Below, piece after piece: positions 33,190-55,367 of a stretch of 64,000 nt of DNA. The notes under the pieces were generated by a model that ran no database searches, was not told where the DNA came from, and saw only the letters and a program-made list of their open reading frames with translations. Within the stretch, counting starts at the first letter, position 1. The number at the start of each line of letters is the position of its first letter. The position numbers were made by a program, and so were the translations under genes. The DNA lies in contig CAVPLM010000005.1 of NCBI GenBank assembly GCA_963706025.1, positions 480,001-544,000 on the forward strand, in the 5' to 3' direction. This DNA comes from an uncultured Actinomycetes bacterium. Lineage in GTDB: Bacteria > Actinomycetota > Thermoleophilia > RBG-16-64-13.

Positions 33190-33301
33190 GGTGCCCAGGG
33201 TAGCAGATGACGGTCGCCTGGGAGACCGCCCGGGGGCCCTCTGGATTGCCGTCGGCACCAGCTCTTGTTATGCTACGCGCTCTGGCGGCCGCGAGGATCA
33301 G

Positions 33302-33505
33302 ATGGATGCCTTGACACCGGAAGGCCTACCGCGAGGAGGCGAAGCCGAGGGCATCATCGTTCGCCGATCTCTCCCGGTCCCAGGGAAACGACCGAGCCAC
33401 GTCTGGTATCTGCGGGCAGAACTGGAACAGGCAGGTGTCTCATTAATGCTGCGCCCACATCTGAAGCAGTCGGCGCCAAAGGACCATACGCCCCGGTCCC
33501 GGTGA
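33302..33505 (+). CDS. small hypothetical protein
   Basis: ATG after GAGGA; its TGA overlaps the GTG of the next gene (GTGA). Confidence 0.45.
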   Translation: MDALTPEGLPRGGEAEGIIVRRSLPVPGKRPSHVWYLRAELEQAGVSLMLRPHLKQSAPKDHTPRSR

Positions 33506-34890
33506 TCGATCTCACCACTTCTCAGTTCGCGGTGATCGGCGCCGGGCGTCTTGGCTCCAGTCTTGCCCTCGCCCTGCGTTCTCGGGGTGCACACCTCGCC
33601 GGCTTCACCTGTCGGTCGCCGGAAGGCCGCTCCCGGGCAGAAGCCCGGCTGGGACAACGAGCGAGCGCCGACATCCACGAGCTGGTGTCTTGCTCGCCCC
33701 ATCTCTATTTCATCGCCGTGCCCGACGACGTCCTGCCCGAGGTGGCCGACGAGCTAGGCGGGGAACTGGGCTCGGCTAGGGCGGTGAATCGCGACGCGCC
33801 GCTGGTGCTCCACACCAGCGGCGCCACGTCGGTCGCGGTCCTGTCCCCCTGCGAGCAGGCCGGGGCCGTCACTCTCGTCTTTCATCCTTTGCAGACCTTT
33901 CCCGACCCGGTCGGCGGAGCGAACCGCTTCGCCGGCGCGGCGATCGCCGTCACTCCTGCTTGCGGAGGCGTGGACTCGCCCGGGGCTTCGTTCGGTTTCG
34001 CGCTCGCGCGGTCGCTGGGAGCCCGGCCCTTCTTCCTCTCGGATGACAAGCGCAGCCTGTATCATGCCGCAGCCACCCTGGCCTGCAACTACTTCGTCAC
34101 CCTCGAGCACCAGGCGGAGCAGCTCTTCATCAAGGCGGGGCTGGACGAACAGGAGGCGCTGGCCCTCTTCTTGCCGCTGGTCAACGCGACGCTCGAGAAC
34201 CTTCGCTCTCAGGGTTCGGTGGCGGCCTTGACCGGACCGCTGAGCCGGGGAGACGCGCATACGGTCGGTCTGCACCTTACCGCTCTGGCGAACGAGGCAC
34301 CCCGCCTGCTCCCCCTCTACCGGGTCCTCGGCCTGGCCACTCTCGATCTCGTCCGGGCCCGCGGCGACGTCGACCCCTCGGTGATCGCCGAACTCACGGA
34401 TTTGTTAGGCAGACACACAGACGGAGAGGATCCTAGTATGACAGCGGCAACTACGGTTTCGGGTCCGGTAACGGTGGTCACCGACCGCCTGTATTTCGAG
34501 ACTCAGGGGAACGCCGACATGGTCAACCTCACCGACAAGGTACGCCGGCTCGTAGAGGCGACCGGCCTCCAGGCCGGCACGGTCACTGTGTTCTTCCCGG
34601 GAGCCACCGGGGCCGTCACCACGCTCGAGTTCGAGCCGGGGGTGGTGCAGGATTTCCGGAACCTGTTCGACAGGATAAGCTCCCCGGCGGAGCACTACGA
34701 GCACAACGTTACCCACCCCGATTTGAACGGTCATGCTCACGTCCGGGCAGGGCTCTTGGGTCCCTCTCTGGTCGTGCCTTTCGATGACGACGGACTCTGC
34801 CTCGGCCGCTGGCAGGAGATCTGTTTCGTCTGTTTCGACAACCGTCTCCGGGAACGCACGGTCATAGTTCAGACTCTTGGCGTTCGCTAA
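33502..34890 (+). CDS. Rossmann-like/DUF2520 oxidoreductase (PanG-like) read in frame into a YjbQ/UPF0047 domain
   Basis: IGAGRLG, AVPDD, HTSGA, HPLQTF, LYHAAA, LTGPLSRGD; from Met 34438 YjbQ motifs EFEPG, NGHAH, LGRWQEI. Confidence 0.85.
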   Translation: MIDLTTSQFAVIGAGRLGSSLALALRSRGAHLAGFTCRSPEGRSRAEARLGQRASADIHELVSCSPHLYFIAVPDDVLPEVADELGGELGSARAVNRDAPLVLHTSGATSVAVLSPCEQAGAVTLVFHPLQTFPDPVGGANRFAGAAIAVTPACGGVDSPGASFGFALARSLGARPFFLSDDKRSLYHAAATLACNYFVTLEHQAEQLFIKAGLDEQEALALFLPLVNATLENLRSQGSVAALTGPLSRGDAHTVGLHLTALANEAPRLLPLYRVLGLATLDLVRARGDVDPSVIAELTDLLGRHTDGEDPSMTAATTVSGPVTVVTDRLYFETQGNADMVNLTDKVRRLVEATGLQAGTVTVFFPGATGAVTTLEFEPGVVQDFRNLFDRISSPAEHYEHNVTHPDLNGHAHVRAGLLGPSLVVPFDDDGLCLGRWQEICFVCFDNRLRERTVIVQTLGVR

Positions 34891-34925: not shown

Positions 34926-36212
34926 ATGAAACCGGTACTGCAATTGGCTCTCGACTTCGTCGACCTCCCCCGCGCCCTGCAGGTGGCCGAAGAAGCGATC
35001 GCCGGAGGGGCGGACTGGCTGGAAGCCGGCACTCCTCTGATCAAGAGCGAAGGTCTGCAGGCCATCCGTGAGCTCAAGGCCCGTTGGCCCGACGTCACCA
35101 TAGTCGCCGATATGAAGACCATGGACGCAGGCCGCACGGAAGTGGAGTGCGCCGCCAAAGCCGGCGCCCGAGTGGTGGGAGTGCTGGGCGCGGCTTCAGA
35201 CGCCACCATCGCGGAGTGCGTGGAGGCTGCCCGCAACTACGGGGCCGAGATCGTCGTGGACATGATCCAGGTGCCCGATGTGGTGGCTCGCTGCATAGCC
35301 GTCCAGGAGACGGGCGCCAGCTACGTGGGCATCCATGTCGCCATCGACGAGCAGATGCAGGGCAAGGCTCCCTGGGATACGTTGCGGGAGGTAGCCAGGG
35401 CCGTGTCGATACCGGTGGCCGTGGCGGGAGGCATCAACTCCGAGACCGCTCCCCTCGCTCTGCAGGCTGGGGCTTCCATCGTAGTCGTGGGCGGCGCCAT
35501 CACCAAGGCCGTCGATGCCACGGCCGCTACCAAAGCGGTGAAGCAGGCCATGGAGACGCTGTTGTCTGTGAAATCGGAGTACTTCGTGCGGGCCACCGGC
35601 CCTGATCTGCGCAAGATGCTGACCCGCGTGTCGACGGCCAACGTCTCCGACGCCCTGCATCGTACCGGAGACCTCCCCGGGCTGCGGCCGTTGACCCCTG
35701 GGTCCAAGCTGGTCGGACCCGCGCTCACCGTCCGCACCGCCCCTGGTGACTGGGCCAAACCAGTGGAGGCTATCGACAAGGCCGAGCCGGGGGACGTCCT
35801 GGTCATCGACGCAGGCGGCGTCCTCCCCGCGGTATGGGGAGAACTGGCCACCAACTCGGCGATAGAGAGAGGGGTGGCCGGAGTGGTCATCTTCGGAGCG
35901 GCCCGTGACACCGGCGATATCCGGTCCCTCGGCTTCCCGCTTTTCTCCACTCTGGTGTCCCCCACTGCCGGGGAAGCCAAGGGCTTCGGCGAGATCGGCG
36001 TGCCGGTCCGTATCGCGGGAGTGCGCGTTTGCCCCGGCGACTGGATCGTCGGGGACGACGACGGTGTGTGCGTCATCCCTCGGGAGAAGGCAGTGGAGTA
36101 CACCAACCGGGCCATGGACGTGCTCGAAAGGGAGAACCGTCTCCGCTCGGAGATCCAGGCCGGCAGCACTCTCAGTCAGGTGGGCTACCTGCTTAGGTGG
36201 GAGAAGAAGTGA
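34926..36212 (+). CDS. hxlA: 3-hexulose-6-phosphate synthase fused to an RraA/HMG-aldolase-like domain
   Basis: LQLALD, LEAGTPLIKSEG, DMKTMDAG, AVAGGI; C-terminal STANVSDA, VWGEL, GAARD, PGDWIVGDDDGV. Confidence 0.9.
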   Translation: MKPVLQLALDFVDLPRALQVAEEAIAGGADWLEAGTPLIKSEGLQAIRELKARWPDVTIVADMKTMDAGRTEVECAAKAGARVVGVLGAASDATIAECVEAARNYGAEIVVDMIQVPDVVARCIAVQETGASYVGIHVAIDEQMQGKAPWDTLREVARAVSIPVAVAGGINSETAPLALQAGASIVVVGGAITKAVDATAATKAVKQAMETLLSVKSEYFVRATGPDLRKMLTRVSTANVSDALHRTGDLPGLRPLTPGSKLVGPALTVRTAPGDWAKPVEAIDKAEPGDVLVIDAGGVLPAVWGELATNSAIERGVAGVVIFGAARDTGDIRSLGFPLFSTLVSPTAGEAKGFGEIGVPVRIAGVRVCPGDWIVGDDDGVCVIPREKAVEYTNRAMDVLERENRLRSEIQAGSTLSQVGYLLRWEKK

Positions 36213-39691: not shown

Positions 39692-40993
39692 TCACCGGGT
39701 GTTCTTCCGCATGCCCTCGAGGAACTCCGGGTTGGACTTGGTCTCTTTCAGCTTGTCGATGAGCAACTCAATAGCCGCATTGGGATCGAGCGCATGCAGC
39801 ACCGCCCTAAGCTTCCACACCATCTTCGCCTCGGCCGGGTCCATCAACAGCTCTTCTTTGCGCGTGCCGGAGTTCTCGATGTCGATGGCCGGGAAGATCC
39901 GCTTGTTGGCCAGTTGGCGAGTCAGACGTACCTCCCAGTTGCCTGTGCCCTTGAACTCCTCGAAGATGACCTCGTCCATCCGCGACCCCGTCTCGACCAG
40001 CGCTGTCGCCAGAATGGTAAGAGAGCCTCCTTCCTCGATATTCCGCGCCGCCCCGAAAAACTTCTTGGGTGGATAGAGAGCCGTCGAGTCGACCCCGCCC
40101 GAGAGTATGCGGCCGCTGGCCGGAGCCTGCAGGTTGTAGGCTCGGGCCATGCGGGTGATCGAATCCAGAAGGACCACCACGTCCTTGCCCACTTCCACCA
40201 GGCGTTTGACCCGTTCCAGCACCAGTTCGGTCACCTGCACGTGGTTCTCCCCCGGCTGATCGAAGGTCGAGCTCACCACCTCGCCGGTCACTGTGCGCTC
40301 CATGTCGGTGACCTCTTCCGGGCGCTCGTCCACGAGCAGCACCAGAAGGTGAACCTCCGGATTGTTGGTGGCGATGGCGTTGGCGATGTCCTTCAGGATG
40401 GTGGTCTTTCCCGCCTTGGGAGGGGAGACGATCAGCCCCCGCTGCCCCTTGCCGATGGGACTCAGCAGATCCATCACCCGGGCGGCTATCCGGTCGGGCG
40501 TCGTCTCCAGCCGCAGGCGTTCGTCAGGAAAGAGCGGCGTCAACGAGTCGAAGGTGGGGCGGTGACGAGCCTGTTCGGGATCGATGCCGTTCACCGATTG
40601 GATCTTGAGCAAGGCATGGTACTTCTCGTTGTCACGCGGGGTGCGCACCTGCCCCGTGATCTCGTCGCCCCGGCGCAATTTGAAACGCCGTATCTGCGAC
40701 AGCGACACGTAGATATCGGAGTCCGACTGCGTATAGCCCTGCGTGCGCAGGAACCCATAGCCATCGGGCAGTATGTCGAGCAACCCTGTGCGAAAATGCA
40801 GGCCCCGGTCCTGAGATTGCTCGTTTAGGATCTTCATGATCAGATCCTGCTTCGAGTACTTCCGGTAATTCTTGATACCCAGCTCGCCCGCGACCATGTG
40901 CAAGTCGGAGAGGAGCTTGGGCTCCAATTCGGCTAGGGACATCGTCTTACTTCCCACTGTTGGCTCATGTTCACCGTCCTTATGTTCGTTCAC
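39692..40993 (-). CDS. rho: transcription termination factor Rho
   Basis: [43 protein letters not shown]. Confidence 0.98.
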
Positions 40994-41038
40994 GTTGGCT
41001 TGTCTTCTCTCCTGGTCGTCAGCTCTTCGGTCCCGCTG

Positions 41039-42052
41039 CTATCTCGCGTCTAGGCTCACCCGCGGCCCTCCGTTACCCGCCCGGTGTATCGTCCTTACCA
41101 CACGTATCGCGTGACAGCGGGAGCAGAGAAGAAGCGTCTCGGAGCGTACTCCGTCGGAGCGGACATCTATGCCCCGCAGGAATCTGCCTCCGGTGACCGC
41201 GGTGGCCACGAATAGCACGCCATCTCCGGCCATGTCGCTCGTGGTCAGACGCGTCTCGATGTCCTCGATACCCGCGATCCTCACCTGCTCAACCTGATGA
41301 CGGGAGACCGGCCAGAAGCGGGCCTGCATCTCGCCCCCCAGACAGCGCAGGGCCGCGGCCGTCATGATGCCTTCGGTGGAGCCTCCGATGCCCACATACA
41401 AGTCGACACCGGCATCTCGCGTCGCCGCAGCGATGCCCGCCGACACGTCACCGTCCGCTATGAGTCTGAGCCGCGCGCCTGAACGCCTGATCTGAGCTAT
41501 CAGATCCTCATGGCGTGGCCGGTCGAGGACGACCACGTTGAGGTCGGCGGGCCGCCGTCCGAGGGCGGCGGCCACTGCGTTGATATTGTCGCCCATGGGA
41601 GCGTCGATGTCGATGGCCGCGGCCGCCTCACCGGCCACGATCAGCTTCTGCATGTACATCTCCGGCACGGCCATGATGCTGCCAGGCGGTCCGGCGGCCA
41701 GCATGCACAAGGCACCGTCCAGGCCGTGCCCCAGGGCGGCATGGCCCTCCAGCGGGTCCACCGCCAGATCCCATATCCCCTGTGGGTCTTCTTCGCTCCC
41801 CGGACCCACTTCGTGGCCCACTTCGTCTCCCACACACAGAGCACTGGACGGCTCTGTGGCTCCGTGACCGGTCACCACCCGTGCCTTGAACGGTGCCGGC
41901 ATCTGAGCAAGCTCAGCCGCCATGGCCTCTCTCGCGGCCTCGTCGCCAAGCAGGCCATCTCCCCTGCCTGCCCACTCGGCAGCCGCAAGACCACCGGCTT
42001 CCGTTACCAGCGCGAAGCGACCACAAATGCACCGTCCCTCAATAGTCCCCAC
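41039..42052 (-). CDS. glpX: GlpX-like class II fructose-1,6-bisphosphatase homolog with degenerate motifs
   Basis: VTEAG, AVDPLEG, YMQKL, LDRPRH, DGDV; GTG start after GAGGAG overlapping the 2PGK end. Confidence 0.8.
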   Translation of the reverse strand: MGTIEGRCICGRFALVTEAGGLAAAEWAGRGDGLLGDEAAREAMAAELAQMPAPFKARVVTGHGATEPSSALCVGDEVGHEVGPGSEEDPQGIWDLAVDPLEGHAALGHGLDGALCMLAAGPPGSIMAVPEMYMQKLIVAGEAAAAIDIDAPMGDNINAVAAALGRRPADLNVVVLDRPRHEDLIAQIRRSGARLRLIADGDVSAGIAAATRDAGVDLYVGIGGSTEGIMTAAALRCLGGEMQARFWPVSRHQVEQVRIAGIEDIETRLTTSDMAGDGVLFVATAVTGGRFLRGIDVRSDGVRSETLLLCSRCHAIRVVRTIHRAGNGGPRVSLDAR

Positions 42053-43019
42053 TGCCCAACTCCTCAGTCTGTTCGATGAGACCATACAAGGCGTCGACGA
42101 CCATCCCCACCGTGTCGTCGATGCTCACGTTGTCCACGACAAGTGTCCCTTCGGCTCCTGCCCGCTCAAGGATGAATTCCTGGATCTTGCGTATCTCCTC
42201 GAATCCCTTCAGGTAACGAGCAAACACCCTGCGCCCAGATGTCTCCTGCTCCCTCACCAAGAAATGGCTACGATGCAGATGCGAGTCGGTCACGGCCACG
42301 ACCAGGGGAAGCAAGAGAGCCTCCCCGCTCCGCTCTCGAGCTCCGATCGAGGCGAGCATCCCGGGAACCATGTGCACACCCTCCACTACCAGGCTGGTGC
42401 GCTCCTCTATCGCCCTATCCAACACGGCCAGCACACCGACATTGACCATCTCCACCTGCTCCATGAAACCTATCAAGTTCGAGTCTATGCCGACGCGCAA
42501 CGGGATCCGAACAGCCTTGTCCGCGTCGTACGACGAGTAGTGGATTGCCGGCATGAGGCTCTCGGAGAAGAAGGCCCTCATCACCTGCCGAATGGCGTCG
42601 GTGGAGATGATCCTCACCACCCCAAGCCGCTCCGCCACCTGGGCGGCGATCGTACTCTTGCCCACCCCGGTGGCTCCTCCGATCAGCACGATGACCGGCA
42701 TGTCCTCTCTAGCCAACCGATTCCAGGCGCGGTAGCGCTGCAGGTACCGTTGCCCTTCGCTCTCAGCCAACACCAGCTCCACCATCTGGCGTAGCCGGTC
42801 CACGCTCACCTCGCGGTCGAGCCCCTGCAGCAGCTGCCACTCCACATCCATGGCCACCCCAAAGGCCCTTTCCGGCGGTAGCCCGGTGGCGGTCAACGTG
42901 GTTGCCAGCAGTCCCTTCGAGAAAGGCACCTTGTGACCCTCTCTCACCAGTTGGATGGGGAAGTTCTCCGGCCTGGAAAGCCTGGCGCCCGTGTCTTGCC
43001 GGCCTTCGCCGCTGCCCAT
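42039..43019 (-). CDS. pgk2: 2-phosphoglycerate kinase (ATP-cone plus P-loop)
   Basis: PFSKGLLATTLTATG ATP-cone, GGATGVGKST, STDAIRQVMR, EGVH; adjacent to cpgS. Confidence 0.88.
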   Translation of the reverse strand: MGSGEGRQDTGARLSRPENFPIQLVREGHKVPFSKGLLATTLTATGLPPERAFGVAMDVEWQLLQGLDREVSVDRLRQMVELVLAESEGQRYLQRYRAWNRLAREDMPVIVLIGGATGVGKSTIAAQVAERLGVVRIISTDAIRQVMRAFFSESLMPAIHYSSYDADKAVRIPLRVGIDSNLIGFMEQVEMVNVGVLAVLDRAIEERTSLVVEGVHMVPGMLASIGARERSGEALLLPLVVAVTDSHLHRSHFLVREQETSGRRVFARYLKGFEEIRKIQEFILERAGAEGTLVVDNVSIDDTVGMVVDALYGLIEQTEELGSGDY

Positions 43020-43023
43020 CCCG

Positions 43024-44406
43024 CTACACCCGCTTCTCGAAACGCGTTCTTGCCAACTGAGCCAACTCCTCCGCCACCTGAGCCAGACGCCCCTCGTGTC
43101 CGGGCGACACCTCGACAGGAAGGTTGTCGACGAACACCACTTCAAGTCCACGTGCTTCGGCTTCGGCGGCCACCATGTCGATGGCCGCAGCCTTGATCTC
43201 CGTCAGAACCGCGTCCACCCGCCCCATCTCCGGCCGCTCTAGATCGGCGCGCAATTCCGGCCGACTGGAGAGGTTCCCCGAGAACAGCTCCACTCGGCAG
43301 CCCCAGCGCTCCTCCATGTACCGCCTCAGCAACCCCTCCTGGACGCGAGGCGCCGAGGAGAAGAAGGCTACCCGTCTACCCTCGACCGGCTGCGCCGGGT
43401 GCGGCCTGAACACGACGGGAAGGACCTCTAACCCCGGTTTGACCTCGTTCACCGCGTCAAAGACTGCGCGCACCTTCTCCCTCGACGCTAGAGGCTCCTC
43501 GGCCATGGTCAGCACCAACGCATCGCTGGTTAGCAGGCGATATGTCCCCAGGTATCCGGCGATGTGTTCCACCGGCTGCTGGGCTCCGGCCACCAGCAGG
43601 CGCGCATCTGTGCCGACGGGCGGCAGAGTCGCCCCACTGCCCTCAAAGATCACCAGACCCGGGGCCAGGCTGTTGGCCAGTCGCGCCCCGGCAGCCACAT
43701 TTGAGACGAAGGGCTCTCCGGCCATGCCCCCGCCACATCTGCGGCACCCTACGGTCACCACCCGGCTAAGGACCGCATCCTCGAAGTGATCCGACGCCGC
43801 GTGCCGGCCCTCCCGACTCCAGGCCAGAAGATCCTCGACAGTCAGACCGACCCGAGCCCCGTCGATGATCTCGGGTTCCGCAGGACCGCCGCGCCCCATC
43901 GCCACGACCACCACTTCGTGCGCGTCTTCCCTGGTCGCCAAGCCCCGCAAGACCCGCGCCACGTAGCCGCTGATCGCCGTTTTGCCCACCCGCTTCCCCG
44001 TCCCGACGACGGAAAGCGAAGGACTTGCGCAAAGATGATCTGAGCTTGTAGGGCTGAAGTGGAAATCCGGACCAACGTAGCCTACGTTCCGCGCCAAGCT
44101 GTGGCTGATGAGACGGAAACGCACCTCGTATCCTAGCACCGGCTCATCGCTCAGGTCAACGACCACCTCCGGATCGAACATCTCGATGGCCCGGCCCAAG
44201 CCTCGGCTCAGATCCGGGTCGAACACTACAGGCAGACCATAGATTCTTTCGGCCGCAGCCTCTAGGTCATCGTCCCTGATCTTCTCGAACCCACCTAGGA
44301 ACAGGGCGCCCCGGAACTCGAAACGCTCCGCGGCTTGTCGTAGGGCGTCGACCACCACCGACGGATAGTGCTCCCCATCGATCAGAGCGACGGCCGGCTG
44401 CTTCAT
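43024..44406 (-). CDS. cpgS: cyclic 2,3-diphosphoglycerate synthetase
   Basis: LIDGEHYP, DLSDEPV, GTGKRVGKTA, MGRGGP, HAASDHFEDA, GCRRCGGG, EGSGA, EIKAAAID. Confidence 0.88.
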   Translation of the reverse strand: MKQPAVALIDGEHYPSVVVDALRQAAERFEFRGALFLGGFEKIRDDDLEAAAERIYGLPVVFDPDLSRGLGRAIEMFDPEVVVDLSDEPVLGYEVRFRLISHSLARNVGYVGPDFHFSPTSSDHLCASPSLSVVGTGKRVGKTAISGYVARVLRGLATREDAHEVVVVAMGRGGPAEPEIIDGARVGLTVEDLLAWSREGRHAASDHFEDAVLSRVVTVGCRRCGGGMAGEPFVSNVAAGARLANSLAPGLVIFEGSGATLPPVGTDARLLVAGAQQPVEHIAGYLGTYRLLTSDALVLTMAEEPLASREKVRAVFDAVNEVKPGLEVLPVVFRPHPAQPVEGRRVAFFSSAPRVQEGLLRRYMEERWGCRVELFSGNLSSRPELRADLERPEMGRVDAVLTEIKAAAIDMVAAEAEARGLEVVFVDNLPVEVSPGHEGRLAQVAEELAQLARTRFEKRV

Positions 44407-45203
44407 GGCCCAGGCTCTGCCTCAATGGGGAGACCATTGCGCAGATAGGCCTTCGAGGCTGCGTCGAACTCGACGATCACCTCCGCCCCATGGAAGGGAT
44501 ACCGGCGCGATATCGTCACGTGATCGCCTAGGATCTCGATGACGTTGTAGCAGGGTTTCGTGTCGCCCCTGAGCCGCAGAGTAGCGACGGTCCCAGTGTT
44601 CACGACGAACATGTTCTCGAGACGCCACGCGTAGGGCACGTGCTTGTGGCCGGAGAGTACGAGTTCCACACCGCACTCCACCAGCACCTCCAGCACGTCA
44701 CCTGCATCGTTGACGATGTTACGCTCCCGCCCGGTGCCCGGGATGGGAAGCAGATGGTGATGCAGGACAAAGATCTGGAAGTCTCCGGGGCACTTTGTGA
44801 ACGCTTCCCTCATCCAGGGATAGCGGTGCCGGCCGATGCGCCCGTAGTCGAGGTCGGGCTCGGTAGAGTCGACGCCCACCAACGTGACGCCTTTCTTGCG
44901 GATCACGTTCTCCCGGGATGCGAACAACCGCTCAAAATGTGCGTAGCCGACGTTTCGGCTGTCGTGGTTGCCGGGCACCACCAGGACGTCAGGGCAGTCG
45001 AGCCGGTCGAGATACTCGCGCGCCTCTCGGAATTCCTGGCGATACCCCATGTTGGTCAGGTCTCCGGTGACAACCACGACGTCGGGGGCCAGGTCGTTCA
45101 CCTCCACCAGGGCCCGGTCCAGCAGATTGGGCACGAAGTACTGGGAGCCCGTGTGCAGGTCGGACAGGTGGGCGATGACACAGGAGCGAGTCTTGTTGTC
45201 CAT
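44403..45203 (-). CDS. calcineurin-like metallophosphoesterase (CpdA-like)
   Basis: SDLH, GDLT, GNHD, HHH, GHKH motifs; stop overlaps the cpgS start (ATGA). Confidence 0.9.
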   Translation of the reverse strand: MDNKTRSCVIAHLSDLHTGSQYFVPNLLDRALVEVNDLAPDVVVVTGDLTNMGYRQEFREAREYLDRLDCPDVLVVPGNHDSRNVGYAHFERLFASRENVIRKKGVTLVGVDSTEPDLDYGRIGRHRYPWMREAFTKCPGDFQIFVLHHHLLPIPGTGRERNIVNDAGDVLEVLVECGVELVLSGHKHVPYAWRLENMFVVNTGTVATLRLRGDTKPCYNVIEILGDHVTISRRYPFHGAEVIVEFDAASKAYLRNGLPIEAEPGP

Positions 45204-45272
45204 GTCGACTTCCTCCGCCTGGAATGCCCAGTTCAGCCCGCATTCCGGACCGGGACGGGCTGAAAGCGCCGC

Positions 45273-46340
45273 CTACTCAGCGCTCGCTATGATCTCCTCC
45301 ACCGCCGCCAGATCAGCCGGACAATGGATGATCGGCCGTGACTGGTCGATGGCGGTCTGTGGATCCTTCAAACCATGGCCGGTAAGAACCGCTACCAACG
45401 TATCACCGAAGGGCAATCCGGTGCTGCGGTACTTGAGCAGCCCGGCCACGCTGGCCGCCGAAGCGGGCTCGCAGAACACGCCCTCCTTCTGGGCCAGGAG
45501 TCGTTGTGCGGCCAGTATCTCCTCGTCGGTCACATCGCGTATCGCGCCGTGCGACTCGCACGCGGCCGCCAGGGCTTCTTCCGCTCGGGCCGGATTGCCG
45601 ATGCGGATGGCCGTCGCGACCGTCTCCGGCTTCTCCACCACATGTCCGCACACCAAGGGGTTGGCCCCCTCGGCCTGGAAACCCCACACCACCGGCAGCC
45701 GTCCGGCCAGCCCATTCTGGTGGTACTCGCGGAAACCCTTCCAGTACGACGTGATGTTGCCCGCGTTGCCCACAGGGATGGAGAGCATAGCGGGGGCCTC
45801 CCCCAGACGGTCGACGATCTCAAAGGCCGCCGTCTTCTGTCCCTCGATCCGGTAGGGGTTGAGAGAGTTCACCAGGGTTATGGGCTGCCGCTCCGAGATC
45901 TCCTTGACGTATTCCAGCGCGAGATCGAAATTGCCCTCGATCGCGATCGCCACGGCCCCGTGCATGAGCGCCTGCGACAACTTGCCCATGGCTATCTTGC
46001 CTTCAGGTATCAGTACGACACAGCGCATTCCGGCCCGGGCCGCGTACGCGGCCGCGGAGGCCGAAGTGTTGCCCGTCGAAGCGCAGATGACCGCCGTCGC
46101 GCCTTCTTCCAAGGCCTTGGTGATGGCCACGGTCATACCCCGGTCTTTGAACGATCCCGTAGGATTGGTCGCCTCGTACTTGAGGTACACGCGGCAACCC
46201 AGCTCCTTGCTCAACCACTCGGCCGGGATCAGCGGAGTGCTGCCCTCACCCAGGCTGGCCGGAACGGTGTCGGGCTTCAAGGGCAGGTAACGGCGATACC
46301 GCTCGACCACCCCAAAGGGACGCTCGTCCCCCGCGCCCAT
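45273..46340 (-). CDS. thrC: threonine synthase
   Basis: [39 protein letters not shown]. Confidence 0.96.
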
Positions 46341-47621
46341 CTAAAGCACCCTCAGGGTCATGGGCCTGCTCTTGCAGCACTTCAAGCCCTTGGCCTGCTC
46401 GATCGCGGCGAAGAAATCCTTTTCGCGCGTGGGGTGCGTGATGAGCACCAACTCCGCCTCCGCCCCCCTGCCCTTCTGGATCATGCTTGCGATCGAGACC
46501 CCGTGCTCGCCGAACACGGACGCGATCTGGGCCAGCACGCCGGAAACGTCTTCCACGTTCATCTTGATGAAGAAGGCCGATTCCACCTCATCCGCCGGGT
46601 AGAAGCCCAGATGGCGGTAGCAGGAGCAGCTCTGCAGGAAGCCGACGTCCTTGGTGTTGGCGATGGAGATGATATCGCTCACCACTGCGGTAGCCGTAGG
46701 TGCGCCGCCGGCACCGGGCCCCATCAACATGATCTCCCCGATGGCGCTGCCACGTAGGAACACCGCGTTGTGAGAGCCGCTGATGGACGCGAGTGGATGA
46801 TCGACCGGCACCAGAGCGGGAAACACCCGCACGCTCACCCGCTCGTCCATCAGACGAGCCGCGCCGATCAGCTTGACCACAAAGCCCAGGTCCTTGGCAT
46901 AGCGTACGTCCTCCAGGCCTATTTCCTGGATGCCCTCGAACGATACATCGGCCAACGTGACGCGCGAATGGAAAGCGATCGACCCCAGAATGGCCATCTT
47001 CGCAGCCGCGTCGGCTCCACCCACATCGGCGGTGGGATCGGCTTCAGCAAAACCCAGTTCCTGAGCCTTGGCCAGGATGTCGGCATAGTCGCCCTCGTCG
47101 CTATACATGCGGCTGAGGATGTAATTGGTGGTGCCGTTCACTATCCCGTACACCGTGTGGAGTCCCGCCGCGATCATGCTCTCCCGCATCACCTTGATGA
47201 TGGGGATCGCCCCAGCTACCGAAGCCTCGAAACGCAGGTGACGTTTCTCGTCTCGAGCAAGATCGAACAGGGCCTCACCTCGGGAAGCCAGAAGCTGCTT
47301 GTTGGCCGTTACCGCGTTCTTTCCCTTCCGCATCGCCGCATCGAGAAAGGTGAACGCGGCGTCGGTGCCGCCGATCAATTCCACCACGATATCTATGGAG
47401 CGATCGTCCACGATCTGAGCGAAATCGCTGGTGAACAGACCCGGGGGCGCGTCGGCGGGGATCTTCGCCTCATCGATCTCCAGCACCTTCGCGACCTGGA
47501 GGTCCACCCCGGTACCGTCCAGGATCTGGTCGTGTTCCTTCTGGATGAGCCGGTACACGCTGGATCCGATGGTACCGAAACCCAGCAGACCGAGTCGTAC
47601 GGTCCTTTGCTCCCGACTCAT
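46341..47621 (-). CDS. hom: homoserine dehydrogenase with ACT domain
   Basis: GFGTIG, VTANK, FEASVAGAIP, NGTTNYIL, GPGAG, C-terminal ACT. Confidence 0.96.
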   Translation of the reverse strand: MSREQRTVRLGLLGFGTIGSSVYRLIQKEHDQILDGTGVDLQVAKVLEIDEAKIPADAPPGLFTSDFAQIVDDRSIDIVVELIGGTDAAFTFLDAAMRKGKNAVTANKQLLASRGEALFDLARDEKRHLRFEASVAGAIPIIKVMRESMIAAGLHTVYGIVNGTTNYILSRMYSDEGDYADILAKAQELGFAEADPTADVGGADAAAKMAILGSIAFHSRVTLADVSFEGIQEIGLEDVRYAKDLGFVVKLIGAARLMDERVSVRVFPALVPVDHPLASISGSHNAVFLRGSAIGEIMLMGPGAGGAPTATAVVSDIISIANTKDVGFLQSCSCYRHLGFYPADEVESAFFIKMNVEDVSGVLAQIASVFGEHGVSIASMIQKGRGAEAELVLITHPTREKDFFAAIEQAKGLKCCKSRPMTLRVL

Positions 47622-47646: not shown

Positions 47647-48966
47647 CTAGTCGTGCAGCGGGTGCTGCTTCGCCACCAGATCGGCGTAGCTCTCGCGCTC
47701 GATGATGACCCGCGCCCGGCCCTCGTTCACCAGGATGACGGCCGGCCGCAGGCTACCGTTGTAGTTCGAGGCCATGGCGTAACAGTACGCGCCGGTGGCC
47801 GGCATGACCAGAACGTCACCCGGCTCCGGACGGGCGATGACGGCGTCCCGGATGAGGATGTCGCCACTCTCGCAGTGCTTGCCCGCAACCGTGACGGTCG
47901 TGTCTGCGGGCGCCTCGGCCTTGTTCGCCAGCATGACCTCGTACCGGGCATCGTAGAGCATGGGACGGATGTTGTCGCTCATGCCCCCGTCGACGCTCAC
48001 ATAGGTGCGGACGCCCGGGATCTCCTTGATCGTTCCGACCCGGTAGGCGGTGATGCCCGCTTTGCCTACGATCGATCGTCCGGGCTCGATGAGAACCCTG
48101 GGCATGGGCAGGCCCATGGCCGCCATTTCTTCCCGGACCCCTTCGACCTTCACCGTTACGTAGTCGGCGATGGACGAAGGCGCGTCGGCTTCGGTGTAGC
48201 GGATGCCCAGACCGCCCCCGATGTTGAGATAGCGACAGTCGAAACCGAGGCTCGCATGCGCTTGACCTATGAGTCTCACCAGGATCTCGATCGCCTTCCT
48301 GAACGGCTCGAGAAGGAATACCTGGCTGCCTATGTGGGCGTGCACGCCCACGAGATCCAAGTGAGGCGCGGCGAGAGCCCGGCGGATGGCCTCCAGAGCC
48401 ACTCCCTCCAGAAGCCCGAAGCCGAACTTCGAATCGACCTGGCCGGTCTCGATGTATGAATGCGTGTGGGCTTCGACGCCTGGAGTGATGCGAAGAAGGA
48501 TCCGCTGCGAACCTCCCCGTGCTGCTACCAGTTCTTCCAGCAAGTCCAACTCCTGGAAGCTGTCGACCACGATGAACCCAACGCCTCGCGCAAGCGCGTA
48601 TTCCAGCTCCTCGCGGGTCTTGTTGTTTCCGTGGAAGAAAATGCGCTCGGCGGGAAAGCCGGCTACCTCGGCCACGTGGTATTCCCCTCCAGACGACACG
48701 TCGATCGAAAGCCCCTCCTCGAGCACCAACTGGTCCACCGCCACCGAGGAGAACGCCTTGCTGGCGTAGATCACCTCGAAGTCGTCGGTATGCTCGCGGA
48801 ACGCCGTTAGGTAGCGCCGACACTGGTCGCGGATGGACTCCTCCTCGTATATGACGAGGGGGCTGCCGTACCCGGCCACCAACTCGGCGACATCGCAGCC
48901 ACCGACCTGCAGGTGTCCGGCCGCGTTGTGCGAAGCAGTGATGGGATAGACGAGCGTGTGGGTCAC
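47647..48966 (-). CDS. lysA: diaminopimelate decarboxylase
   Basis: YASKAF, HGNNK, SKFG, HIGSQ, EPGRS, CESGD, GAY. Confidence 0.96.
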   Translation of the reverse strand: MTHTLVYPITASHNAAGHLQVGGCDVAELVAGYGSPLVIYEEESIRDQCRRYLTAFREHTDDFEVIYASKAFSSVAVDQLVLEEGLSIDVSSGGEYHVAEVAGFPAERIFFHGNNKTREELEYALARGVGFIVVDSFQELDLLEELVAARGGSQRILLRITPGVEAHTHSYIETGQVDSKFGFGLLEGVALEAIRRALAAPHLDLVGVHAHIGSQVFLLEPFRKAIEILVRLIGQAHASLGFDCRYLNIGGGLGIRYTEADAPSSIADYVTVKVEGVREEMAAMGLPMPRVLIEPGRSIVGKAGITAYRVGTIKEIPGVRTYVSVDGGMSDNIRPMLYDARYEVMLANKAEAPADTTVTVAGKHCESGDILIRDAVIARPEPGDVLVMPATGAYCYAMASNYNGSLRPAVILVNEGRARVIIERESYADLVAKQHPLHD

Positions 48967-54344: not shown

Positions 54345-55367
54345 CTATTCCACGCGGGTGGGAGGGGCACCGATCAGCTCCTCCAGCTTGGTTATCTCCG
54401 GCGGCGTGCCGATGGCGATAATCTTGTCGCCCGGGTCCAACGGCAGGTCCGGGGAGGGGTTCGTGTCGAAGACCCCGCTGTGGGTACGCCGTACCGCGAG
54501 GATCGTGGCTCCCGTCCGCTCGCGTATGCGCAGGTCCTTGATCGACTGGCCGATGGCACAACACTGTGCGTTCAGCTCGAACTCCTCAAGCCGGAACTCC
54601 AATTCGCCACCGCCGGTGACCACTTCCAGGTAGTCGCTGACCAGTGGTTTGAGCATCAGCGTGGCCATCCGCCTGCCCCCTATCCCATAGGGTGACACCA
54701 CGTGGTCGGCCCCAGCCCGTTCGAGCTTGCTCTGGGTGTCCTCGGAGCCGGCCCGGGCGACGATGAGCAACCCCGGATTCAGCACCCGAGCCGAAAGAGT
54801 CACGAAGATGTTTCCAGCGTCAGACCCCACGGCAGCCACCAGACCCCTGGCCCGGGTGATGCCTGCCGCTTCGAGCACGTCGTCGGCTGCGGCGTCTCCA
54901 CGAACCGCCAGGAATCCCTCGGCCTCAGCCCGGGAAAGAACCTCGGGATCCTCGTCCACTACCACGAACTTGGCGCCGCTCCTCAGGAACTGTCGCGCCA
55001 CGCTCTCGCCCACGCGACCGTAGCCACATATGATGTAATGCTCCTCCAATCTGTCCACCTGCCGCTTCACCACCCTCCTCCGGAACGCGCCCGTGAGCTG
55101 ACCCCCGACTACGAACTCCCCCATGGCTCCTATGCCATAGAGTATGGTCCCCACCCCGCCGAAGATCAGCAGCAAGGTGAAGATCGACCCTGCAGACGAC
55201 AAGGGGTGGACTTCCCCGAAACCCACCGTGAAGATGGTGGTCACGGTCATGTAGAGCGAGTCTAGCAGGCCCCAACCCTCGATCAGCACAAAGCCGATCG
55301 TGCCGATCACCACGACAGCGAGGATCGCCGCGAGAACGACGAGCCCGGTCTTCAGTTCCTGTCGCAT
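54345..55367 (-). CDS. potassium channel with RCK (TrkA-N/TrkA-C) domains
   Basis: TVGFG selectivity filter, CGYGRVG Rossmann motif, C-terminal TrkA-C. Confidence 0.92.
   Translation of the reverse strand: MRQELKTGLVVLAAILAVVVIGTIGFVLIEGWGLLDSLYMTVTTIFTVGFGEVHPLSSAGSIFTLLLIFGGVGTILYGIGAMGEFVVGGQLTGAFRRRVVKRQVDRLEEHYIICGYGRVGESVARQFLRSGAKFVVVDEDPEVLSRAEAEGFLAVRGDAAADDVLEAAGITRARGLVAAVGSDAGNIFVTLSARVLNPGLLIVARAGSEDTQSKLERAGADHVVSPYGIGGRRMATLMLKPLVSDYLEVVTGGGELEFRLEEFELNAQCCAIGQSIKDLRIRERTGATILAVRRTHSGVFDTNPSPDLPLDPGDKIIAIGTPPEITKLEELIGAPPTRVE

Follow-up and report, generated by a model that had tools for sequence, protein, structure and literature searches.

A metallophosphoesterase linked to cyclic 2,3-diphosphoglycerate synthetase in a bacterial gene cluster is a candidate for the ring-opening hydrolase

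Cyclic 2,3-diphosphoglycerate (cDPG) is found "exclusively" in hyperthermophilic methanogens, as the abstract of the structure paper on its synthetase puts it (PMC10690619). What, then, are genes for its synthesis doing in a bacterium, and is the phosphoesterase encoded beside them the enzyme that opens the ring again? These questions are raised by a 64,000-nucleotide stretch of DNA from an uncultured bacterium of the Thermoleophilia (contig CAVPLM010000005.1, positions 480,001 to 544,000), the whole of which is called the window in the following. According to its list of open reading frames (ORFs) and a base-by-base reading, the window carries at 41039-45203, on the minus strand, four genes in the order metallophosphoesterase (MPE), cDPG synthetase (cDPGS, gene cpgS), 2-phosphoglycerate kinase (2PGK) and GlpX-like protein. 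The cDPG module has MPE as a conserved accessory, inherited along with it in two domains of life. That the cluster is a bacterial cDPG module in which MPE would serve as the cDPG ring-opening hydrolase is the best reading, evenly balanced between belief and doubt.

The tight coupling of the four genes at 41039-45203, which the original prediction had described as an ATGA overlap, a 4-bp gap and a 14-bp overlap, was confirmed base by base. The ATGA is common to the MPE stop and the cpgS start, the TAG of cpgS is followed by four bases (cggg) and then by the 2PGK ATG, and the GTG of the GlpX-like gene, with GAGGAG ahead of it, gives a 14-base overlap with 2PGK, whose TGA lies at 42041-42039. As an alternative start of the GlpX-like gene, a longer ORF extends up to an ATG at 42085. 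The identities proposed for the four products were upheld as well by profile, phmmer and Pfam matches.

The cpgS product, encoded by the only copy in the window genome, aligned over nearly its full length with the cDPGS of Methanothermus fervidus (PDB 8ORK/8ORU; phmmer E 4.3e-116, 392 bits, query 5-452 on chain 7-452 of 8ORK), while no Pfam or NCBIfam model matched this 460-aa protein. In the passages of the structure paper that describe the site, K145, R146, K149 and T150 belong to the Walker A motif, E45 and K46 contact 2,3-diphosphoglycerate (2,3-DPG) from the partner subunit, D208 is the Mg ligand, and E305, E404 and K406 contact ATP (PMC10690619). In this numbering, all of these residues are identical in the window protein and T353 is replaced by Ser; the placement of P335 in the alignment is uncertain. 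The best families of the kinase were by far NF008994 (281 bits) and NF003259 (274.3 bits), with E values of 1e-82 to 1e-84 and scores below both equivalog cut-offs (603 and 343 bits, respectively). Its architecture comprises an ATP-cone (PF03477, residues 26-101) followed by P-loop families from residue 104. Naming by homology alone would be risky here, because the arginine synthetase ArcE (TK2200) is a distant cDPGS homolog with another activity, an ADP-forming reversible reaction, and with low similarity to cDPGS, according to a passage of PMC11032458. The window protein, in contrast, is a close full-length cDPGS match paired with 2PGK and, given the low similarity stated in that paper, may well lie outside the ArcE branch. 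Since the contacts to 2,3-DPG are conserved and the 2PGK partner is present, we read the window cpgS as encoding a true cDPGS, for which the strong homology and the kept ligand residues argue for a role in making cDPG.

Phylogenetic profiling of the phosphoesterase against cpgS, proposed as a check in the original prediction, was strongly positive in samples of the class, the phylum and the Thermococci, and both the profiles and the loci revealed that the two genes are linked in other genomes. Genomes, contigs, loci, families and genera are given below with our own labels (G, C, L, f and g). Of the 151 genomes of the class sample, 86 carried cpgS and 86 carried 2PGK, and the tallies by family and genus agreed exactly. 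MPE matched in 88 at E <= 1e-25 and, as an ortholog at E <= 1e-97, in 85, three of the 88 (G018, G036, G108) having only a paralog of about 50% identity. Every one of the 85 ortholog carriers was cpgS-positive, and none of the 65 cpgS-negative genomes carried it. When the coordinate tables were compared by eye, MPE lay directly upstream of cpgS on the same contig and strand in 84 of the 85; in the exception, G116, the two genes are on different short contigs. The co-occurrence follows the families closely: neither gene was present in families f2 (0/26), f5 (0/12) and f7 (0/11), one genome of family f1 (G058) is without cpgS, 2PGK, MPE and GlpX, and in family f3 cpgS and MPE were each found in 17 of 25 genomes, the same ones for either gene. 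The phylum sample of 401 genomes, with an MPE threshold of E <= 1e-30, gave a similar picture, as cpgS and MPE were each detected in 227, both in 223, neither in 170 and MPE only in four (G018, G505, G546, G596); because related genomes are not independent, such counts indicate a tight module and not a number of independent events. Fourteen of the 401 genomes are flagged unpublished, and without them (n=387) cpgS was found in 213, both genes in 210, cpgS only in three and MPE only in four. Wherever phylum-sample pairs were checked by coordinates, they were adjacent (21/21).

A cpgS scan with one genome per species yielded 114 relatives, and the locus figures refer to the best 80 of these. They are mostly from Thermoleophilia/Gaiellales-type metagenome-assembled genomes (MAGs), together with Acidimicrobiia, Geothermincolia, Acetothermia, Calditrichota, Anaerolineae, a Firmicutes MAG, a Thorarchaeote and Thermococci. 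For the 77 loci with at least 900 nt upstream of cpgS, tblastn placed MPE immediately ahead of cpgS in 62, some 500 nt upstream in two, and 1.4-1.8 kb downstream in seven, all of them Thermococci. Directly downstream of cpgS, 2PGK was found in 68 of the 74 loci with enough flank, GlpX came next in 46 of 67, and lysA-hom-(thrC) preceded MPE in most related loci.

The surroundings vary between lineages. In Thermoleophilia-type loci rho follows directly after the cluster, and in other Actinomycetota loci it follows a transaldolase gene; the order in Acidimicrobiia and Geothermincolia is hom, thrC, archaeal-type phosphoglycerate mutase, MPE, cpgS, 2PGK, transaldolase, rho. The mutase that precedes MPE there has the domains PF10143 and PF01676 (L080:4833-6050), and the short transaldolase/FSA (PF00923, 215 aa) stands in the GlpX position before rho (L080:9416-10063, L071:9434-10081). 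An iPGM-type mutase with the domain order Metalloenzyme then iPGM_N comes after cpgS in an Acetothermia MAG (L054:8307-9887) and an Anaerolineae MAG (L048:8389-10023), and 2PGK and MPE were not found in these two loci. Mutases near cpgS make chemical sense as suppliers of 2-phosphoglycerate (2PG). One lineage (L109, G046:C23:60000-74000, and L030) keeps cpgS-2PGK-GlpX-rho without MPE and has two PPDK_N-domain proteins (602 and 946 aa) and a glutamate dehydrogenase upstream instead. In another genome, in which MPE was not found, the cpgS homolog contains an in-frame TAG (G272:C10:24345-25688).

A second lineage with the same link are the Thermococci, in which cpgS and 2PGK are followed, sometimes after a CBS-domain protein of 136-139 aa, by a protein of 503-507 aa with two MPE domains in tandem. 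Its N-terminal half is 36-39% identical to the window MPE in our alignment A1 (37-42% by tblastn) and keeps all subfamily motifs, while its C-terminal half is a degenerate copy of the same domain, 31% identical to the N-terminal half and with changed metal motifs. Of 101 Thermococci genomes, 69 carry cpgS, and the tandem-MPE homolog was found in 69/69, mostly within about 3 kb of cpgS, though not in about 11 that were noted. In one genome without cpgS, a homolog of 76-78% identity is split in two and contains an in-frame TGA (G208:C1:489024-490531), which looks like decay after loss of the partner cpgS.

The MPE itself is a calcineurin-type metallophosphoesterase (PF00149, E 3.9e-18). The metal motifs D-x-H, GD, GNHD, HHH and GHKH are all present and invariant in 37/37 aligned orthologs, and the same holds for the subfamily motifs RNVG(Y), DSxEPDL, HHHLxPxPxxGRERN and GHKHVP. 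Five arginines (R83, R159, R161, R212, R233) are also invariant in the 37 orthologs and would suit a polyanionic substrate. An AlphaFold2 model with a pLDDT of 86.8 had Rv0805 (top) and GpdQ as nearest folds (Foldseek E 6e-16, TM 0.73-0.74, 17-22% identity), which are also the best solved relatives by sequence. A search of the ESM Atlas with MPE returned its own family only.

How could such an enzyme act? In the proposed scheme, 2PGK would convert 2PG to 2,3-DPG, cDPGS would close the phosphoanhydride ring with ATP, and MPE, as a soluble metal-dependent hydrolase, would open the cyclic P,P'-diester of cDPG to give back 2,3-DPG, by which stored carbon, phosphate and bond energy could be mobilised. 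We propose opening of the ring because the closest relatives of MPE are diesterases and each phosphorus of cDPG should be diester-like. P,P'-diesters of pyrophosphate are cleaved by the MPE enzymes LpxH and ADP-ribose pyrophosphatases. With the four genes, a mesophilic actinobacterium of freshwater or sediment might build up and draw down a store of phosphate and energy, and the cycle would not serve heat protection. As to the hydrolase, the original prediction had stated that the activity was described without a gene being assigned to it. This agrees with a passage of a 2005 review, which cites for cDPG hydrolase activities of Methanothermobacter thermautotrophicus two biochemical papers only (Sastry et al. 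1992; van Alebeek et al. 1994), and with our full-text literature searches, in which no gene for the enzyme was found.

A competing reading is that MPE acts as a phosphomonoesterase on 2,3-DPG (or on 2PG or 3-phosphoglycerate), with the ring being opened by reversal of cDPGS, which would make ATP. The linkage data fit this equally well. Purple acid phosphatases, which are monoesterases, do occur among the fold matches, yet the relatives closest in both sequence and fold, Rv0805 and GpdQ, are diesterases. The cDPGS of M. fervidus is reported to be reversible in a passage of the 2005 review. Against this rival, a 2,3-DPG phosphatase beside 2PGK would make an equally futile cycle, and in many lineages a GlpX-like bisphosphatase homolog already fills the phosphatase slot. 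We consider a 2,3-DPG phosphatase unlikely, while for cDPG hydrolysis by MPE the arguments are about in balance.

This leads to the fourth gene, whose product, to judge by its residues, is a specialised, operon-linked and diverged paralog of class II fructose-1,6-bisphosphatase (FBPase) and not an ordinary FBPase, a point that is new here. It matched PF03320 with E 8.6e-95 and 317.6 bits over profile positions 7-307 of 307, and stayed below the TIGR00330 equivalog cut-off (231.9 vs 259.3 bits). Passages on the catalytic site of Mycobacterium tuberculosis (Mt) GlpX list Asp27, Glu51, Asp79, Asp82, Thr84, Tyr114, Arg159, Arg161, Asp183 and Glu208 (PMC5892879) and describe the T84A variant as inactive (PMC5892879; PMC5485559). 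In the window protein, His replaces the catalytic Thr84(Mt)/Thr90(Ec; Escherichia coli), so that DPLEGH is read where DP(I/L)(D/E)GT is canonical, and His also replaces the metal ligand Glu51(Mt)/Glu57(Ec) of the GEGE motif, where the window reads TGHGATE. The other eight of the ten positions are kept, namely Asp27, Asp79, Asp82 (as Glu, as in E. coli), Tyr114, Arg159, Arg161, Asp183 and Glu208. Relatives of the same clade have gone further, with AGRGG or ASRGS in the GEGE region, DPLQAP, and up to four catalytic-site residues lost; linked copies of family f4 have GGTRQA in place of GGTPEG. Unlinked GlpX copies keep GEGEKDEAP, DPLEGT and GGTPEG, and 52 of 53 linked copies lose at least one of these.

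Across the class sample, canonical GlpX scored 390-477 bits in a Pfam search in families with or without cpgS, and the copies after 2PGK about 300-377 bits. Fourteen genomes of families f4 and f10 have two GlpX, a canonical one elsewhere (450-477 bits) and a second one directly after 2PGK (320-363 bits), and in the six of these whose cluster was examined, the four genes are not located near thr genes or rho. A quick IQ-TREE analysis placed the 52 motif-losing linked copies on one side of a branch with moderate support (SH-aLRT 88), and the window protein in a clade of 31 rows with support 100 and a long stem of 0.57. In G032, the linked GlpX between 2PGK and rho is canonical and groups with the cpgS-negative family f2, which has thrC...glpX; this points to thrC...glpX-rho as the ancestral order, one that accommodates the module. 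GlpX is an optional part of the module, because in families f3 and f6 cpgS mostly occurs in genomes with no GlpX at all, genus g23 has the canonical copy only, and in genus g15 GlpX was not found in any of the eight genomes searched. The idea that GlpX tracks cpgS within g15 was rejected, as this absence held whatever the cpgS status.

Could the GlpX-like protein be simply the housekeeping FBPase, with no connection to cDPG and a place beside rho that old synteny has preserved? The window genome has no other GlpX, and a search of this 92%-complete assembly for FBPases of class I, III or V found none, yet an inositol monophosphatase (IMPase)-family protein is present that could supply FBPase activity. 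Eight of the ten catalytic-site residues are kept, yet the two replaced by His include the Thr whose exchange inactivates the M. tuberculosis enzyme, and same-clade relatives lack still more. An adjoining glpX and rho is a known arrangement in Bacillus, and together with G032 and family f2 it counts for the housekeeping view; the linked and canonical copies that coexist in f4 and f10, with the cluster not beside rho, and the position of the linked copies on one side of the tree count against it. Mere neighbourhood by old glpX-rho synteny was rejected as a full explanation on account of these f4 and f10 clusters, though such synteny may account for the ancestral state in G032 and f2. We hold the housekeeping role to be improbable, and favour the GlpX-like protein as a re-purposed member of the turnover branch, which with its kept sugar-phosphate binding residues could act on or bind 2,3-DPG, either as a 2,3-DPG phosphatase with an altered mechanism or as a non-catalytic binding or regulatory protein. 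We infer this role with less confidence than that of MPE as ring-opening hydrolase.

A further alternative for MPE, namely a general phosphodiesterase or nucleotide-signal hydrolase of the Icc or CpdA kind that came to lie beside cpgS by inherited order or co-regulation and has no cDPG substrate, is quite improbable. It draws on the public names of the relatives ("Icc protein", CpdA, "3',5'-cyclic-AMP phosphodiesterase", "metallophosphoesterase"), on the at least 6309 clusters matching at E <= 1e-40, and on same-motif paralogs in unrelated contexts and in cpgS-negative genomes. The cAMP phosphodiesterase equivalog PRK11148, in contrast, gave only 44.3 bits with MPE at a cut-off of 225, and inherited gene order alone is insufficient because MPE is gained or lost together with cpgS within f3, moves with it to another chromosomal place in f4, and is linked to it in a different order in the Thermococci. 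Least probable is that the module makes no cDPG in bacteria and the cpgS homolog catalyses another ADP-forming ligation (as ArcE) or works on another phospho-acid, since the lack of reports of bacterial cDPG in our literature searches is met by the end-to-end alignment with solved cDPGS, in which the named 2,3-DPG, Mg and ATP contacts are kept except for Thr to Ser, by the identical tallies of cpgS and the substrate-making 2PGK, and by phosphoglycerate mutases adjoining cpgS in other phyla.

Several points weigh against MPE as the cDPG hydrolase of a bacterial module. The four proteins are known here from genes alone, and the full-text searches, judged by title and abstract, found no report of cDPG or a cDPG pathway in bacteria. 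According to a passage of the 2005 review, the cDPG hydrolase of van Alebeek et al., the better described one of the archaea, is membrane-bound and inhibited by K+ and Pi; unlike it, the window MPE is predicted to be soluble, as no transmembrane segment was found (maximum 19-residue Kyte-Doolittle-type hydropathy 1.29). Translationally coupled genes for a synthetase and for the hydrolase of its product would set up a futile cycle if activity were not under control, and genomic linkage alone fits cDPG hydrolysis and 2,3-DPG dephosphorylation alike. Nor is the linkage without gaps: MPE was absent by tblastn from six of the 77 cpgS loci (L030, L048, L052, L054, L055, L059), from one cpgS carrier of the class sample (G046) and from four of the phylum sample (G272, G436, G515, G615), and MPE homologs occur in 12 of 32 cpgS-negative Thermococci, 11 of them at 35-47% identity and the twelfth being that of G208. 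Family f6 has a second MPE copy of about 50% identity with all signature motifs, also seen in three cpgS-negative genomes, which lies between a heavy-metal P-type ATPase gene and a rhodanese or TauE gene, and f22 genomes of the phylum sample have two to four MPE matches each. The co-occurrence counts overstate independent events, as the sampled genomes are related, and the coverage consists of the best 80 of 114 loci and the profile samples, with the cDPG-accumulating methanogens outside it. Finally, the GlpX-like gene turned out to be a diverged operon-specific paralog to which the original prediction had given no role. The f6 paralogs (L105:6815-7627, L106:6745-7554, L108:6277-7086) carry a 15-residue insertion.

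The cluster lies within the co-directional string lysA-hom-thrC-[four genes]-rho, with 69 bp between it and thrC and 45 bp between it and rho (Table 1). A promoter and terminator scan of the cluster gave no signal above shuffles. Misassembly does not account for the four-gene arrangement. In DNA run X2, one contig of 4800 nt extends over 40830-45400 with 12 differences, and DNA runs from two other studies also cover the whole cluster stretch, in pieces. Near-identical window DNA was detected in freshwater and sediment metagenomes, with seven runs having at least half of the sampled words, or six runs from two studies when the best-holding run is excluded. In a sediment metatranscriptome run (X20), the MPE gene was matched by two contigs of 151 nt (at 44727-45010, each with one difference), and there were a few short pieces of poor fit; such a library may contain DNA, so these matches were not counted as expression.

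Table 1. Positions of the cluster genes and their neighbours in the window, and of tandem-MPE genes in three Thermococci loci
Feature	Location	Strand	Details
Metallophosphoesterase (MPE), first gene, candidate cDPG hydrolase	44403-45203	(-)	266 aa, 30.0 kDa
Cyclic 2,3-diphosphoglycerate synthetase (cpgS)	43024-44406	(-)	460 aa
2-Phosphoglycerate kinase (2PGK)	42039-43019	(-)	326 aa, ATG at 43019
GlpX-like protein	41039-42052	(-)	337 aa from GTG at 42052
thrC (threonine synthase), upstream flank	45273-46340	(-)	TIGR00260, 315 bits
hom, upstream neighbourhood	46341-47621	(-)	
lysA, upstream neighbourhood	47647-48966	(-)	
rho, downstream flank	39692-40993	(-)	TIGR00767, 663 bits
Tandem-MPE gene	L075:4908-6431	(-)	
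Tandem-MPE gene	L077:9665-11188	(+)	
Tandem-MPE gene	L076:9159-10670	(-)	

Elsewhere in the window, 34926-36212 (+) encodes an unusual fusion of an orotidine monophosphate (OMP)-decarboxylase/HUMPS-family domain and an RraA-like aldolase (PF00215 + PF03737), and 33265-34890 (+) is an ORF with Rossmann-like, DUF2520 and UPF0047 domains. A K+ channel with TrkA-N and TrkA-C domains is encoded at 54345-55367 (-), about 9 kb from the cluster, with no link to it shown; K+ is the counter-ion of cDPG in methanogens.

What we describe is a known pathway with two added accessory genes, MPE and the GlpX-like gene. Genes for cDPG synthesis are widespread in one bacterial phylum (227 of the 401 sampled genomes), whereas the literature examined treats cDPG as exclusive to hyperthermophilic methanogens, and an enzyme of cDPG breakdown that has been without a gene since the early 1990s now has a specific candidate in this 30-kDa MPE, which should be easy to express. 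In the GlpX paralog, nature may have put an FBPase scaffold to a different use. More tentatively, and here doubt outweighs belief, cDPG might occur widely in mesophilic Actinomycetota and in Thermococcales as an actively cycled metabolite of phosphate and energy, served by a dedicated four-part system of 2PGK, cDPGS, a new MPE subfamily that opens the ring, and a GlpX-derived protein without the FBPase catalytic Thr that either takes a phosphate off 2,3-DPG by a new mechanism or senses its pool. If this were true, MPE would be the reason that cDPG escaped detection in these organisms, the function of cDPG would be storage and turnover and not heat protection, thousands of "cAMP phosphodiesterase" and "FBPase" annotations would be corrected, and producers of cDPG as an extremolyte would gain a gene to delete or avoid.

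Compared with the 2PGK and cDPGS pathway of M. fervidus, the window pair shows full-length cpgS homology with identical P-loop, trans-subunit E45/K46 and Mg ligand D208, and the same ATP-cone and P-loop architecture of the kinase. It differs in that the host is a bacterium (Thermoleophilia/Gaiellales-type) with DNA from freshwater and sediment, that the pair sits in a cluster with MPE and the GlpX-like gene, and that the pathway is known here from its genes. With the hydrolase activities of M. thermautotrophicus, MPE would have in common the reaction from cDPG to 2,3-DPG. The class III phosphodiesterases Rv0805 (3IB7), GpdQ (3D03, 2ZO9) and CpdA/Icc have the same fold, dinuclear-metal motifs and a similar size, and MPE is set apart from them by 17-22% identity, by its own invariant motifs RNVGY, DSxEPDL and PxPxxGRERN, and by cpgS as genomic partner. 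The GlpX-like protein resembles GlpX of M. tuberculosis (6AYY) and E. coli (3D1R) in its full-length Pfam domain and eight catalytic-site equivalents; unlike canonical GlpX it has His for Thr84 and Glu51, a score below TIGR00330 and membership in a fast-evolving cpgS-linked clade, and in some genomes such a linked copy coexists with a canonical one. As a functional analogy, the ppk-ppx and glycogen (glg) operons likewise encode synthesis and breakdown of a phosphate or energy store together; their enzymes are unrelated to those described here, and their stores are polymers, while cDPG is a small cyclic anhydride.

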